Source: a virus
Length of the DNA: 29,296 nucleotides
Direction: 5' to 3' (one strand)
UHGV virus genome: UHGV-0080837
Of this stretch, positions 1,192 to 29,296 are shown piece after piece (position 1 is the first letter of the stretch; each line of letters starts with the position of its first letter). Below the pieces are notes generated by a model. The model searched no databases. It had not been told where the DNA came from and saw only the letters and a program-made list of their open reading frames with translations. Made by a program: the position numbers and the translations under genes.

Positions 1192-1264
1192 ATTAAATTT
1201 CTAACACATCTTTTTAGATTAACGCCTTTGCTGTAAAGTACCCTCGCCTATTTAGGAGGGTGCT

Positions 1265-12527: not shown

Positions 12528-12558
12528 GTTAGAAAACTAAAATCAATATTCTAACGCA
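12528..12558. promoter_or_regulatory. operator dyad with leftward promoter-like elements (internal promoter)
   Basis: TGTTAGAAAA (12528-12537) and TTCTAACGCA (12549-12558) in inverted orientation. Minus-strand TTGATT and an AT-rich -10-like hexamer overlap it. Confidence 0.4.
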
Positions 12559-12581
12559 TTTTGAGTGCGTAAATGATTTGA

Positions 12582-15613: not shown

Positions 15614-15658
15614 ATATTAATGTTTTGTGTTAGAAAATCAATTTTGAATATCTAACCA
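15614..15658. promoter_or_regulatory. divergent promoter region with operator dyad
   Basis: Dyad TGTTAGAAAA (15628-15637) and TATCTAACCA (15649-15658). On the minus strand TTGATT, a 16-nt spacer and TAATAT form a good sigma70 promoter with a half-site in the spacer; a rightward TTGAAT -35 overlaps the other half-site. Confidence 0.5.
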
Positions 15659-21966: not shown

Positions 21967-22684
21967 AAAGATCAATTCCAGTATTATCAAACAAACTGGA
22001 AATATCAGACACCAATTTATTAAAATGCTTGTCATCATTATAGAATGATGTGCTTTTTATAGCGACTATAAAATCACATAAATCTTGCGGAGATTCAATG
22101 CTAACCCCCTTATTTTTATATAGCTCAATAATACTGCCAACATCAGTATGCAATAGTTTTATCGCGCCACAAATTTCTCGCTGTTTCGCAACTAGGTCAT
22201 TAAGTTTATTTTCATTTTCATCTAAGATTTGTTTTGAATATTTAGCGTCATTGGTTGCTTGATTTAACTTTGTTTTCTTTCTTTGCAATTCTATTCTTTT
22301 ATCATAATCAGCAACTTCATCTAAATATCTTATTTCAGTGTATAATTTACTTGTTAGCTTAGATATCTTCAGTGTGAGAATAGGAGCTAACACAGATGCA
22401 AATACTCCATAAACAAATGGGATTACAACGTGATAAACCCACGGGGATACAATCCAATTATCAAAGAACGGGACATTGCCACCAACAAAAACAATAGATA
22501 ATGTATATAGGATGTCGTCCTTTGACTTTAATATAATTAAAATATCCTTCCAGTTAAAAATTAGAAAAGAAATGACAACATATGCAAAAACCTTGTTAAA
22601 TATTTTATCTTTTATTATTTCAGAAAATGATTTTAGTTCTGTTTCATTTATAGACGGATTATCTGTAACTTTTTCTGACATCAT
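21956..22684 (-). CDS. AT-rich moron: two-TM membrane protein with coiled-coil and C-terminal globular region, function unknown
   Basis: 242-aa ORF; sampled 60-nt lines are about 25-27% G+C against about 50% in flanking genes. Two hydrophobic helices (VFAYVVISFLIFNW... and VYHVVIPFVYGVFASVLAPILTL), then K/E/N/Q-rich heptad-like sequence. Confidence 0.5.
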   Translation of the reverse strand: MMSEKVTDNPSINETELKSFSEIIKDKIFNKVFAYVVISFLIFNWKDILIILKSKDDILYTLSIVFVGGNVPFFDNWIVSPWVYHVVIPFVYGVFASVLAPILTLKISKLTSKLYTEIRYLDEVADYDKRIELQRKKTKLNQATNDAKYSKQILDENENKLNDLVAKQREICGAIKLLHTDVGSIIELYKNKGVSIESPQDLCDFIVAIKSTSFYNDDKHFNKLVSDISSLFDNTGIDLSKK

Positions 22685-22705
22685 AGCTTATCCTGATTAC
22701 TTTTA

Positions 22706-22906
22706 TTATGGATAGTTAAAAGATTCAACAGGTGATGGTGGCTGAATTGGGTAATGTTTCTTCTCGTACTCCTCAATGAGAAGACTCATAACCTCAAAGA
22801 AATCACCTTCCGGAGTATTCATTTCCGGTTCGTTATCGAACATCGGTTCGACCGCACGCAGTGCGGCCTCATAATCTTGTTCTGTACGGATAGGTTTAAT
22901 GTTCAT
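22706..22906 (-). CDS. small acidic protein, possibly antitoxin-N-domain-like
   Basis: 66-aa ORF (IKPIRTEQDYEAALRAVEPMFDNEPEMNTPEGDFFEVMSLLIEEYEKKHYPI). Normal GC, weak RBS; the family assignment is from a low-confidence recollection. Confidence 0.35.
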   Translation of the reverse strand: MNIKPIRTEQDYEAALRAVEPMFDNEPEMNTPEGDFFEVMSLLIEEYEKKHYPIQPPSPVESFNYP

Positions 22907-22917
22907 TAATTACAAAG

Positions 22918-22947
22918 GAAAGCCCACTTGCTAAGTGGGCTTTTTGT
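22918..22947. terminator. hairpin plus T-run between higA and the small ORF
   Basis: GCCCAC TTGCTAA GTGGGC (22923-22941) with TTTTT on the + side and a U-rich tract on the - side. Confidence 0.4.
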
Positions 22948-22962
22948 ATGTGTTTTACTATA

Positions 22963-23301
22963 TCAGGCTGCTTTTTTATTCAGGTTCCGCTGAGAAATAA
23001 ATTTTTCAGCAGTATTGATACGACTTAACTCTTCCTGAACGCGCATATCATTTTCGACTTCCCACAGATCTACTGCGGTCTGAAGATTAATCCAAAAATC
23101 TACAGAAGTATCGAATGCTTTTGCCAGGCGATATGCCATATCCATCGTTAGCTTACGATTATTATTAACAAGAGCACTTACGGTGTTACGATGAACATGA
23201 AGTATTTCTGCTAACTCGTTGATCTTCAGCTCTAACGGCTCCAGGTATTCGTACAGAAGGATATCACCTACGGTCGTCGGTTTTCTGGTTGCCTGTTTCA
23301 T
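22963..23301 (-). CDS. higA: HigA-family antitoxin (XRE-type HTH)
   Basis: 112-aa ORF with the HigA-type HTH pattern (VGDILLYEYLEPLELKINELAEILHVHRNTVSALVNNNRKLTMDMAYRLAKAFDTSVDFWINLQ), immediately downstream of the toxin gene. Confidence 0.75.
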   Translation of the reverse strand: MKQATRKPTTVGDILLYEYLEPLELKINELAEILHVHRNTVSALVNNNRKLTMDMAYRLAKAFDTSVDFWINLQTAVDLWEVENDMRVQEELSRINTAEKFISQRNLNKKAA

Positions 23302-23371
23302 TTTTTGCCCTTACTAGCGTGCGTATTAAGTGGACTCTGGTCAGAACCCGGACCGTAACCGGGAATCTGTT

Positions 23372-23674
23372 TTAGTATTTGTGTGGGTCGAGATACAAGT
23401 CCTCGGCCTTTCCGTTAACCCACTTAAAAATTAACCTATATTGCTTATTCACCCTTACTGATGAATAGCCATTTAGCTTCCCTGACAGTTCCTCATACCG
23501 ATTACCTGGTGGTGATCTTAAATCCTTACAGGTAGTTGCGGCATTGATAATGTCCAACTTCCGTGACAATGTCATATGAATATCAGGAGGTATCTTTCTA
23601 TGTGGTGTTGAAAATTCAAAAAAATCATCAAGCCACGCATCCCTGAAATCCTTTATGTTAATTTTTTTGGTCAT
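23372..23674 (-). CDS. higB: HigB-like toxin (plasmid maintenance system killer protein family)
   Basis: 100-aa ORF with the family pattern DL.SPPGNRYEELSGKLNGYSSVRVNKQYRLIFKWVNG.AEDLYLDPHKY; toxin-first order typical of higBA. Confidence 0.75.
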   Translation of the reverse strand: MTKKINIKDFRDAWLDDFFEFSTPHRKIPPDIHMTLSRKLDIINAATTCKDLRSPPGNRYEELSGKLNGYSSVRVNKQYRLIFKWVNGKAEDLYLDPHKY

Positions 23675-26376: not shown

Positions 26377-27026
26377 AGCGTAGAGCGCAAATTGTTGGAA
26401 CTGTGCACCCGGCAGGGCTTATGCGTGCTCAGGTCCGTGTTTTACCAGACTGGAATGGCGTTCCTGATGACGATCTACCCTGGGCAGAATACCTGTTACC
26501 CATAGGTAACGCGTTTGTACCTACAGTAAAAGGCGACCTGGTATGGGTAGAGTTTCCTTATCTGGATGTTAATGGTCGAATTGATACCAGACGCCCAATG
26601 ATAGTTGGCGCAGCTCAGGATGCGCCTGGCGGAGTACCAAACGTCGCGCCGGAGGCGTCAGGCAATGGTAGCGGCTGGACGCCACCAGAAGTAGACGGAG
26701 CGCCTCCCCGCCCGCAATTTTCGGCGACAAAAGATTTCGTGATTCACCGCAACAATGTGCTCGAAGTGCGAACGGCTGGCGGTGGATATGAAATAGCGAA
26801 TACGGCAGCAGGCTCAAGGATTGGAATGAATGAATCAGGGCAGATATACATCATTGGTCCGGCTGATGTAGTAGTGAATGCGGGAGGGAGTGTTAACGTC
26901 AAATCAGCCGATAACATCAGCGTTAATGGCAAAAACATTACTGTGACAGCCGACGAAAATATTGATTTCAAGGCTGGAGGCACCTTCCAGGCTATCGCAA
27001 GCAACTTTGATTTCAAGAAGGGATAG
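26373..27026 (+). CDS. putative baseplate spike protein (gpV/gp45-like)
   Basis: N-terminus MKRRAQIVGTVHPAGLMRAQVRVLPDW ... LPWAEYLLP ... GDLVWVEF fits the OB-fold start of P2 gpV / Mu gp45-type spikes; Gly-rich repetitive C-terminus. Confidence 0.45.
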   Translation: MKRRAQIVGTVHPAGLMRAQVRVLPDWNGVPDDDLPWAEYLLPIGNAFVPTVKGDLVWVEFPYLDVNGRIDTRRPMIVGAAQDAPGGVPNVAPEASGNGSGWTPPEVDGAPPRPQFSATKDFVIHRNNVLEVRTAGGGYEIANTAAGSRIGMNESGQIYIIGPADVVVNAGGSVNVKSADNISVNGKNITVTADENIDFKAGGTFQAIASNFDFKKG

Positions 27027-27035
27027 AAAACACAT

Positions 27036-27079
27036 CCAATTGTGTTAGATAATTGAATAGAATTTTCTAACACAATTGG
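27036..27079. promoter_or_regulatory. perfect 14-bp inverted repeat operator overlapping the rdgC promoter
   Basis: CCAATTGTGTTAGA (27036-27049) and TCTAACACAATTGG (27066-27079) flank a 16-bp spacer containing TTGAAT; ends 6 nt before the rdgC ATG. Confidence 0.55.
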
Positions 27080-27085
27080 TGAAAC

Positions 27086-27991
27086 ATGAGATCAGTCGCT
27101 TTCAAAAACATCTTCATCTATCGTCTTTCACGTGAAGTTAACTGGAGTGCCGCAGAAGTATCCGATGCTCTTAGCAAATTCGTGTTTACTCCTTGCGGTT
27201 CTCAGGACACAGCTAAAGTCGGTTGGACACCTGTTCTTGGTGACAACCTCACCCATGAATACCAGGGTTTTCTGCTAATACAGCATAAGCGAGAAGAAAA
27301 AATTCTCCCCTCGCAGGTGCTCAAGGAAGAGTTGCAGAAAAAAGTCCTGAAACTCGAAGAAGAGCAAGCCCGCAAGCTGAAGAAAACGGAAAGAGACAGT
27401 CTTAAAGATGAAGTCCTGCATTCACTTTTGCCTCGCGCGTTCACGAGAAAATCACTCGCCAAAATCCTGATCGACCGCAGCAACCATCTGGTATTCGTTG
27501 AGGCAAGCAGCGCCAAAAAGGCAGAGGACCAGCTGGCTTTATTGCGAAAGTCGCTCGGCAGCCTGCCTGTCATTCCATTCACACCACGCGAACCGCTGGA
27601 AATTACAATGACCGAGTGGTTTAAAAGCGGCTTCCCTGCCGGATTTACAGCAGGTGAAGACGCCACATTAAAGGGTCTGCTCGATAATGGTGGTGCCGTT
27701 CGCTGCAACAAAGTTGATCTACAGTCCGACGAGATTATGTCTCACATTGAGGCGGGGAAAGTAGCTACGACCGTTGCAATTAACTGGATGGACCGTGCGT
27801 CGTTCAGAGTCAACGATGATATGAGTATCAAAGCCCTGACATTCTGTGATGATCTCTATGACCAGAACGACGATATCGACCGGGAGGATGTAGCACAACG
27901 ATTTGATGCTGATTTCGTGCTCTTTACGGGCGAATTATCTGCACTGTTTAACGCGCTGGTGGAGGCCATTGGCGGTGAAGCAGAACGATAA
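27086..27991 (+). CDS. rdgC: recombination-associated protein RdgC homolog
   Basis: 301-aa ORF near-colinear with E. coli RdgC from memory: [93 protein letters not shown]. Confidence 0.9.
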
Positions 27992-28007
27992 TAACCGACC
28001 GCTTGTT

Positions 28008-28655
28008 GTGAGTCTTTGTGATTTTACGGGGGCAATGGTTGCCCCCTGGCTGGAATACGGTGTCGATGCCGCTATCGTCGATCCACAGCACTTATCGACC
28101 AGTGACGAGCGGATGCAATCAGGTGCCGTTCTGACGCGTATTAGTGCGATCATCGATAGCGATGAAGTATACGCTTTTCTCCGTAAGAATTTGCAGCGCA
28201 TCGTGTTTCTGGCCGGGTTCCCACCGTGTACTGACCTGGCTGTTTCCGGCGCGCGCTGGTTTTCGGACAAGGCTAATAAAGATCCGGTTTTCCAGTTCAA
28301 AGCAATGCAGGTTGTCTGGCAGTGTTATGACATTGCAAAGATGATCGGTTGTCCGTACATGATTGAAAATCCGGTCAGCAAAATATCGACATTCTGGCGT
28401 AAGCCAGATCACATCTTTCACCCTTACTTCTTCACTGCATATTGTCAGGAAGATAACTACACCAAAAAAACATGCCTCTGGAGCGGCCAGGGCTTTGTCA
28501 TGCCTGATGCCCTAATGGACGAATCATTAGGCAAGCCAGATAACAGAATCCATGCCGCGCCACCAGGGCCTGACAGGGCTAATTTCCGAAGTGCTACTCC
28601 ACATGGATTCGCAAAGGCAGTTTTCGAAGCGAATAAGGGGGTGCTCTATGAGTAA
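28008..28655 (+). CDS. compact C5-cytosine-methyltransferase-like protein
   Basis: Motif I-like SLCDFTGAM, PC motif FLAGFPPCTDLAVSG, ENV-like MIENPV, but only about 215 aa with no room for a normal target-recognition domain. Start uncertain (GTG at 28008 or ATG at 28035); the track ORF begins inside rdgC. Confidence 0.5.
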   Translation: MSLCDFTGAMVAPWLEYGVDAAIVDPQHLSTSDERMQSGAVLTRISAIIDSDEVYAFLRKNLQRIVFLAGFPPCTDLAVSGARWFSDKANKDPVFQFKAMQVVWQCYDIAKMIGCPYMIENPVSKISTFWRKPDHIFHPYFFTAYCQEDNYTKKTCLWSGQGFVMPDALMDESLGKPDNRIHAAPPGPDRANFRSATPHGFAKAVFEANKGVLYE

Positions 28656-29296
28656 ATCTATAGCAAGCATAGCCATAGAAAAACAGGATACGATGGCTGA
28701 AATTAGCTATATGCGCACCATTCGGACTCCGGATGAATATGAGCGTCCGATATTCAAATGGGTAGGTGGTAAATTCTCAGAATTGCCTACAGTGCTTGAG
28801 CATCTACCACACGGTAAGCGGTTAATAGAACCATTCGTTGGTGGCGGTTCCGTATTTACGAATGCAGGATTTCGCCACAACCTGCTTAATGATATTAACG
28901 GTGACCTGATTAACTTCTATCAGACATTGCAGCGAGAAGGACATTCGCTCGTCACGCTGTCATATAGTTTTTTCAAAAATTACAACAACGCTGACGCTTA
29001 CCTCGAAGTGCGTGAGGCATTTAACAGAGGAAAATATGACCAGCTACATCATGCTGCCGCATTTTTGTACCTTAATCGTCACTGTTTTAATGGCGTAACG
29101 CGGTACAACCAAAATGGCGAGTTCAACGTGGGGTATGGCAAATACAAAGCGCCCTACTTCCCACATGCAGAGATGGAGGCATTTTTGGCTGATGACGTAC
29201 TCAAAAACACTTCCTTTGTATCAGGAGACTTTGCTAGCGTCATCGAGGCGGCTGGTGAAGACGATGTGATTTTTTGTGATCCGCCGTATGAACCGC
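28648..29296 (+). CDS. dam: Dam-family N6-adenine DNA methyltransferase, 3' end truncated by the window
   Basis: Hand-translated from the ATG at 28648: PIFKWVGGKFS, EPFVGGGSVF, FLYLNRHCFNG, GEFNV, and DPPY at the window edge. Overlaps the upstream stop; not in the ORF track because no stop is reached. Confidence 0.8.
   Translation, partial: MSKSIASIAIEKQDTMAEISYMRTIRTPDEYERPIFKWVGGKFSELPTVLEHLPHGKRLIEPFVGGGSVFTNAGFRHNLLNDINGDLINFYQTLQREGHSLVTLSYSFFKNYNNADAYLEVREAFNRGKYDQLHHAAAFLYLNRHCFNGVTRYNQNGEFNVGYGKYKAPYFPHAEMEAFLADDVLKNTSFVSGDFASVIEAAGEDDVIFCDPPYEP

Follow-up and report, generated by a model that had tools for sequence, protein, structure and literature searches.

The viral genome UHGV-0080837 was analysed as a stretch of 29,296 nucleotides (hereafter the window), close to the right end of which a small gene on the plus strand is predicted to encode a compact DNA cytosine-C5 methyltransferase. 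It stands between a homologue of rdgC and a gene for a Dam-family adenine methyltransferase (Table 1). The window derives from a D6-like phage-plasmid of the P1 family; Escherichia phage D6 is a P1-family plasmid prophage, and positions 27000-29296 are 96.3% identical to it in DNA and 100% identical to several Escherichia coli plasmids of approximately 90 kb. The small protein shares 99.6% identity with the product of D6 orf64 (ASR76422.1), which is annotated as 'putative DNA-cytosine methylase'. The two genes are alleles: orf64 has the same GTG-type start 17 nucleotides inside rdgC and is likewise flanked by rdgC (orf65) and Dam (orf63). We put at roughly 85% the probability that 27975-28655 encodes a compact, catalytically intact DNA cytosine-C5 methyltransferase that depends on S-adenosylmethionine (AdoMet), belongs to a phage 'mini-Dcm' family (PHROG 757) and forms part of an rdgC-C5-Dam operon under the control of a D6 C1-type operator.

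The reading frames of the three genes overlap. The C5 gene begins within the last 17 nucleotides of rdgC and its stop codon (TAA, 28653-28655) lies inside the Dam gene, whose ATG at 28648 creates an overlap of 8 nucleotides. The arrangement is that of a three-gene early operon, predicted from the overlapping frames to be translationally coupled, and the same triad of separate genes is present in another P1-like element. The D6 counterpart of the first gene, orf65, is annotated as 'recombination associated protein of RdgC family, similar to P1 hrdC'. The last gene encodes a Dam protein of the D12 class (PF02086, E-value 2.4e-45; TIGR00571, 5.3e-57 and 193.5 bits against a cut-off of 114.85) with its DPPY catalytic motif at 29278-29289; in D6 it comprises 301 residues and is described as 'site-specific DNA-adenine methylase, similar to C-term half of P1 dmt only', and in a PADLOC scan it best fits 'orphan methyltransferase' models. 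No restriction endonuclease gene was found beside the methyltransferases, their neighbours in D6 being rdgC and a convergent glutaminyl-tRNA synthetase gene. In front of the operon lies a palindrome, and all other inverted repeats of the window are shorter. An initial annotation of the same DNA had correctly recognised the rdgC gene upstream, the Dam-like gene downstream, the 8-nucleotide overlap between the methyltransferase genes and the position of the strongest palindrome before rdgC.

Table 1. Features of the rdgC-C5-Dam locus; coordinates are those of the window, and residue counts refer to an alignment of 130 sequences (see text).
Feature	Coordinates	Strand	Details
Divalent operator-like palindrome CCAATTGTGTTAGATAATT / AATTTTCTAACACAATTGG	27036..27079	.	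19-nt arms, 95% complementary; just upstream of rdgC
rdgC/hrdC homologue, 301 aa	27086..27991	+	First gene of the operon; Pfam RdgC PF04381, 5.1e-103; PHROG 724, 1.1e-124
Predicted compact DNA cytosine-C5 methyltransferase gene, 226 aa	27975..28655	+	GTG start; D6 orf64; PHROG 757
Motif I-like cofactor loop LCDFTGAM, residues 14-21	28014..28037	+	Right after beta-strand 1
Motif II-like IVDPQH, residues 34-39	28074..28091	+	D36 kept in 126/130; end of beta-strand 2
Motif IV FPPCT, residues 82-86	28218..28232	+	Predicted catalytic Cys85; C85 kept in 129/130
Motif VI ENPV, residues 131-134	28365..28376	+	E131 kept in 130/130, P133 in 130/130
Motif VIII-like YTKKTCLW, residues 162-169	28458..28481	+	K164 kept in 127/130, W169 in 129/130
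Short variable loop in the place of the recognition domain, residues 178-204	28506..28586	+	About 27 aa
Motif X-like RSATPHGFAKAV, residues 205-216	28587..28622	+	Runs on into the helix at the C-terminus
Dam-family N6-adenine DNA methyltransferase gene	28648..29296	+	PF02086, TIGR00571; cut by the window end just past DPPY

The initial annotation had placed the methyltransferase frame at 28008..28655 and had left its start open between a GTG and an ATG. The frame and its stop codon hold, and the start has to be moved to an upstream GTG that had not been considered, at position 27975, which is most likely the genuine initiation codon as judged from its sequence context. A GGAGG element (27961-27965) stands 9 nucleotides before it; D6 orf64 and the nearest database clusters use the same start (226 residues, beginning MKQN.NNRPL.VSLCD), and remoter homologues carry 8-14 residues ahead of the LCD motif. 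The first predicted beta-strand spans residues 10-14 and would be truncated by a start at GTG 28008, before which no Shine-Dalgarno sequence was found. Because the ribosome-binding site, the starts of the homologues and beta-strand 1 all favour GTG 27975, we take the gene to comprise 27975-28655 and its product 226 residues. Three other candidates were rejected: neither GTG 28008 nor ATG 28035 is preceded by a Shine-Dalgarno sequence, and initiation at these codons would clip strand 1 or motif I; TTG 27903 lies 89 nucleotides inside rdgC, where no homologue reaches.

Searches of Pfam (E-values up to 1), NCBIfam, PADLOC and the sequences of the PDB, the latter queried by phmmer as well as by a family profile, returned no match to the small protein, and the Prokaryotic Genome Annotation Pipeline (PGAP) labels it 'hypothetical protein' on the plasmids. 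Because these curated sequence libraries gave no hit, its classification rests on PHROGs, on its fold and on a characterised homologue. PHROG 757, 'DNA methyltransferase', matches residues 2-213 with an E-value of 3.6e-76. The family is very large: a word-indexed search retrieved more than 7,900 homologues at the least, an exhaustive profile search resolved 2,590 clusters at 50% identity, and tblastn located the family in approximately 1,580 phage genomes, including T1-like Drexlerviridae, Dhillonvirus, rV5-like phages, some T4-like phages and Klebsiella Webervirus. Nearly all members are stand-alone proteins of 200-280 residues, most of them between 200 and 250 (median length 224), and those from E. 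coli, Pseudomonas and Agrobacterium share 55-60% identity.

Conservation was counted after aligning the query and 129 representatives of the 50%-identity clusters (n=130). The motif I, PC and ENV-like elements named in the initial annotation are all present, as LCDFTGAM, FPPC and ENPV, respectively. Within the motif I region D16 and G19 are each kept in 102 of the 130 sequences, P24 in 118 and W25 in 116; D36 of the motif II-like element is, by the topology of class-I methyltransferases, the expected contact of the AdoMet ribose. Towards the C-terminus, the motif X-like element (RSATPxGFAxAV) retains R205 in 122, T208 in 114 and P209 and G211 in 124 sequences each, and is followed by a helix formed by residues 210-224. 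Since the key residues are near-invariant over such divergent representatives, the protein appears to be a working enzyme and not a decayed one. Between motifs VIII and IX there is no separate target-recognition domain, only the stretch of about 27 residues at 178-204, in agreement with the earlier remark that the protein is too short to accommodate a conventional one. Across the family the gap from motif VIII to motif X has a median of 35 residues (range 29-76), and the insertions and sequence replacements found among relatives land in the 178-204 loop, where the structural model is also less confident.

An AlphaFold2 model built from a 36-sequence alignment attained a predicted local distance difference test (pLDDT) of 86 and a predicted template modelling score of 0.86; pLDDT falls below 50 only at the first three residues and in the loop that follows the catalytic cysteine (86-93), with further dips around residues 131-140 and 191-210. 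The model portrays a class-I methyltransferase fold that is nearest to solved C5 DNA methyltransferases, so that the C5 fold suspected initially is recovered rather than some fold unrelated to methyltransferases. The top 16 Foldseek matches in the PDB are DNMT3A/B and include one MET1 entry, with DNMT1 lower down; over all fold searches the best matches are DNMT3A/B, DNMT1, M.HhaI and prophage C5 methyltransferases, and in the viral fold library BFVD they are small proteins named DNA-cytosine methylase. FPPC follows the strand 76-81 and ENPV sits at the end of the strand 128-132, and the order of the motifs on the predicted strands (I, II with D36, IV, VI, VIII-like and X-like) is that of C5 methyltransferases. 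The likeness to the canonical PF00145 enzymes (M.HhaI, E. coli Dcm and the catalytic domains of DNMT3A/B) accordingly lies in the fold and in the order of motifs I, II, IV (PC), VI (EN-V), VIII and X, whereas the differences lie in size and in detail: canonical bacterial C5 enzymes have approximately 330-480 residues compared to 226 in the window protein, in which some 27 residues replace the recognition domain, motif I reads LCDxTG instead of FxGxG, and motif VIII offers KK in place of QxRxR.

The most direct functional evidence comes from a relative encoded by K42, a KarlJaspers-like phage. Mutants of K42 that escape the retron Ec86 (Retron-Eco1) map to a 711-bp 'dcm' gene, the product of which activates the retron (bioRxiv 10.1101/2023.08.16.553469). 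Expressed alone from a plasmid, K42 Dcm raises 5-methylcytosine (5mC) in multicopy single-stranded DNA (msDNA), as determined by LC-MS (liquid chromatography coupled to mass spectrometry), and a C82A/E128A/K175A/K176A mutant shows no such rise; the protein has been superposed on DNMT3A, and it is tolerated in MG1655 without the retron (bioRxiv 10.1101/2023.08.16.553469). Later literature cites the result on K42 Dcm and retron Ec86 as accepted. The corresponding gene of KarlJaspers (Bas06, MZ501090), bas06_0055, is 711 bp long and places C82 in FPPC, E128 in ENPV and K175/K176 in FKKTC, and these four residues align with C85, E131, K164 and K165 of the window protein. On the strength of the alignment, K42/KarlJaspers Dcm and the window protein are members of the same family. 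They share a single-domain architecture, with 236 residues in the former and 226 in the latter; KarlJaspers Dcm differs in the loop at the recognition position and carries an extra insertion before motif VIII. The genomic settings differ as well: KarlJaspers is a virulent T1-like phage in which Dam lies 7 kb from the C5 gene on the other strand, while in the window the two genes overlap.

Several members of the family depart from the stand-alone form. In the 548-residue protein P0219 an intein, consisting of a Hint and a LAGLIDADG homing-endonuclease domain, is lodged between GFPP and the catalytic cysteine of motif IV (junctions ...KITFGFPP / CFTGDTLV...IVHN / CTNLSVSGARWF); because the intein sits directly before this residue, the catalytic cysteine would also serve as the +1 splice nucleophile. 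In P0121 (563 residues) a compact C5 domain sharing 65% identity with the window protein is fused to a complete D12 Dam domain, and the protein is a Dmt-like bifunctional enzyme built on the small domain instead of PF00145. P0172, a member of 348 residues, ends in an HNH_2 endonuclease domain and may represent a single-chain methyltransferase-nuclease. Two very large phage proteins, BFVD A0A6J5SE15 (1397 residues) and A0A6J5NPY6 (1126 residues), likewise contain the compact C5 fold as one of their domains, and one of the two is annotated with a helicase/UvrB N-terminal region. A 2013 study of the Klebsiella phage KP36 reported DNA that resists EcoRII and yet 'no cytosine methyltransferase' gene; a homologue of the small protein is present in other Klebsiella T1-like phages, for example KLPN1.

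If the window protein follows the mechanism of C5 methyltransferases, the cysteine of FPPC (Cys85) would attack C6 of a cytosine that has been flipped out, the glutamate of ENPV (Glu131) would protonate N3, and the methyl group would be donated by AdoMet held by the elements of motifs I, II and X. DNA would be recognised by the loop of approximately 27 residues together with the catalytic loop, and not by a separate recognition domain. A number of observations weigh against this interpretation and have to be set beside the evidence above. The PF00145 hidden Markov model yields no match above its gathering score, the Foldseek template modelling scores are modest (0.42-0.51), and the kinship to canonical C5 methyltransferases is structural only, as seen in the predicted model. 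A comparison with the C5 domain of P1 Dmt likewise remains insignificant (BLASTP E-value 2.9; hhalign probability of the family profile 0.2). Motif I is atypical, with LCDFTG rather than FxGxG; LCDFTGAM contains one glycine, although its position after strand 1 is as expected. With the characterised relative, K42/KarlJaspers Dcm, the window protein shares no more than about 32-44% identity, and the CCWGG specificity given for that relative was assumed, on the basis of the name, to be that of E. coli Dcm (bioRxiv 10.1101/2023.08.16.553469). Finally, the 5mC activity of the window protein and of D6 orf64 is a prediction from sequence, and the repressor control and the anti-restriction role are carried over from P1.

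The comparison with P1 bears on how the small protein might operate. P1 Dmt (YP_006537.1, 754 residues) is a single polypeptide with an N-terminal PF00145 C5 domain and a D12 Dam domain at residues 493-725, and the Dam protein of the window is 65% identical to its residues 465-669. It had been pointed out from the outset that the two activities are fused in P1 and separate in the window, which is correct; the accompanying statement that they occur in the opposite order is not, given that in both cases C5 precedes Dam in the same operon slot downstream of hrdC/rdgC. What distinguishes the window is that two genes with an 8-nucleotide overlap, and with the stop codon 28653-28655 between the activities, take the place of one, and that the slot of the full-size PF00145 domain is filled by a different and much smaller C5 enzyme. 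The notion that the small gene is a split-off piece of dmt was discarded, there being no sequence similarity by hhalign or BLASTP.

One could nevertheless envisage a two-subunit version of P1 Dmt, in which the small protein is the catalytic module only and relies for DNA binding and target choice on a partner, be it the co-translated Dam or some other protein of the phage or the host. The lack of a recognition domain, the coupling of translation to Dam through the 8-nucleotide overlap, the conservation of the rdgC-C5-Dam triad in P1-like elements and the natural fusion to Dam in P0121 would all suit such a division of labour. However, the family is stand-alone and without an adjacent Dam in Drexlerviridae phages and in prophages of Pseudomonas and Agrobacterium: in KarlJaspers Dam is 7 kb off on the other strand, while in PaulSarasin and in these prophages the gene has no methyltransferase as a neighbour. 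Furthermore, K42 Dcm on its own yielded 5mC, and a short recognition loop suffices for DNMT3-type enzymes. The subunit in need of a partner, proposed initially, is consequently not favoured, and we regard it as improbable. Less probable still is that the C5-pyrimidine chemistry serves another product or substrate, such as the transfer of a non-methyl group (for instance carboxymethyl from carboxy-S-adenosylmethionine) or the modification of RNA, single-stranded DNA or free nucleotides. The atypical cofactor loop could be read in this way, as could the nature of msDNA, on which the K42 relative is known to act and which is a DNA-RNA hybrid that is single-stranded in part. Yet LC-MS identified 5mC as the product of that relative, which also argues against the non-DNA methyltransferase of the initial annotation; fold matches to RNA methyltransferases span only about 130 residues of the Rossmann core compared to 171-183 for DNA C5 methyltransferases, and 8yf3 scores no better than ordinary DNA C5 methyltransferases.

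That the reading frame is the remnant of a decayed methyltransferase, or a non-catalytic protein that binds DNA or AdoMet, seems exceedingly unlikely. The shortness of the protein, the silence of Pfam, NCBIfam and PADLOC and the 'hypothetical protein' label given by PGAP in the plasmids may create this impression. A length of 226 residues is, however, the norm in a family with a median of 224, and the members from E. coli, Pseudomonas and Agrobacterium have remained 55-60% identical. The catalytic residues are near-invariant over the 129 divergent cluster representatives (the cysteine in 129 of 130 sequences and the ENPV glutamate in all 130, which speaks against the 'degenerate' enzyme considered at first), an intein has settled exactly at the catalytic cysteine in P0219, and the related K42 member is active. 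An intact cytosine-C5 DNA methyltransferase thus remains by far the preferred reading of 27975-28655.

Less can be said about its target. In neither the window nor D6 did counts of CCWGG, GATC, GCGC, CCGG, GGCC and CGCG, compared with Markov expectation, give a hint of specificity: CCWGG reaches 0.85-0.91 and GATC 0.74-0.76 of expectation, values that are uninformative. In both sequences GGCC is clearly under-represented (0.57-0.59 of the Markov expectation) and CCGG slightly over-represented; the shortage of GGCC and GATC may reflect the avoidance of restriction sites. A literature search retrieved neither D6-specific methylation data nor, for any member of the family, a target sequence that had been measured. 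The restriction enzyme McrBC cuts RmC but not CmCWGG. Taken together with the tolerance of K42 Dcm in MG1655, this rule fits a Dcm-like or other non-RmC target and renders a fully non-specific enzyme less likely. For K42 Dcm itself, CCWGG is backed only by msDNA mutations that abolish defence (bioRxiv 10.1101/2023.08.16.553469). A more far-reaching proposal, to which we assign a low probability, is that the family constitutes the smallest natural class of active DNA C5 methyltransferases, using the loop of approximately 27 residues to read perhaps one to three bases or a relaxed target that is not CCWGG. Such enzymes would be to cytosine what promiscuous phage methyltransferases, M.EcoGII among them, are to adenine, and such a target would explain both the repressor control and the remark of the K42 authors on the toxicity of Dcm.

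The regulation of the operon can be approached through its palindrome. A promoter-like sequence (TAGAAA-18-GATAAT, 27024-27053) overlaps it, and the layout palindrome-rdgC-C5-Dam parallels that of the P1 operon, in which Op68/Odmt, an operator of the C1 repressor, precedes Pdmt, uhr, hrdC and dmt. The 17-nucleotide half-site TTGTGTTAGAAAAT occurs nine times in D6 when up to four mismatches are allowed, and all nine copies are intergenic; they adjoin genes annotated in D6 as similar to P1 lpa, pmgS/R, icd/repL, gene 23, hrdC, ref and pdcB, as well as D6 orf117. Several of these positions correspond to those of C1 operators in P1. A scan with the P1 C1 consensus, which we take to be ATTGCTCTAATAAATTT, returned weak matches only, with 4 mismatches, and to judge by these patterns D6 evidently uses a half-site of its own. 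The findings support, without proving, the assignment of 27036-27079 as a putative operator of the D6 C1 repressor (orf1). Elsewhere in the window copies of the half-site with 4 mismatches each are found at 1195-1211 (minus strand), 12545-12561 (minus strand) and 15623-15639 (plus strand), those at 1195 and 15623 being identical in sequence to the copies at 89943 and 76635 of D6, respectively. The three copies are probably further operators of the D6 C1-type repressor.

Transferred to the life cycle of a D6-like element, the parallel with P1 and a review of the field would suggest the following course. The operon would be silent in the plasmid prophage and be switched on after induction or infection, whereupon the two orphan methyltransferases would mark the replicating phage DNA and, incidentally, that of the host. 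Dam would methylate GATC, a modification that P1 requires for the function of its pac site and for packaging, and the small enzyme would produce 5-methylcytosine, most likely as a protection against restriction; in the BASEL paper, the presence of these methyltransferase genes was not linked in any simple way to resistance to restriction. Phage-plasmids of the P1/D6 type that carry this gene may in turn be sensed by Retron-Eco1-type defences upon induction or infection.

As a discovery the gene carries little weight, being already known: it is an allele of an annotated D6 gene, PHROGs and the BASEL genomes give the family a name, and work on retron Ec86 has characterised one member as its trigger. 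Of practical importance is an annotation gap, insofar as a very large family of phage and prophage methyltransferases is invisible to Pfam, NCBIfam and PADLOC. Because there are no curated models and PGAP calls the members 'hypothetical protein', methylome and anti-defence surveys will miss the family. Besides this absence from the libraries, the remaining interest concerns target specificity, the recognition of DNA without a recognition domain and the minimal architecture of the enzyme.

Two minor observations relate to the surroundings of the operon. In D6, the region just past the window end carries on the opposite strand a gene for a full-length homologue of glutaminyl-tRNA synthetase (L001:8602-10263), which converges on the Dam gene; for a phage-plasmid of the P1 type such cargo is unusual. 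Among its tail and baseplate genes D6 also has an insertion that comprises a gene for a RelE-type toxin and two genes for HigA-type antitoxins (L001:1547-2674, which by offset would correspond to approximately 22547-23674 of the window).

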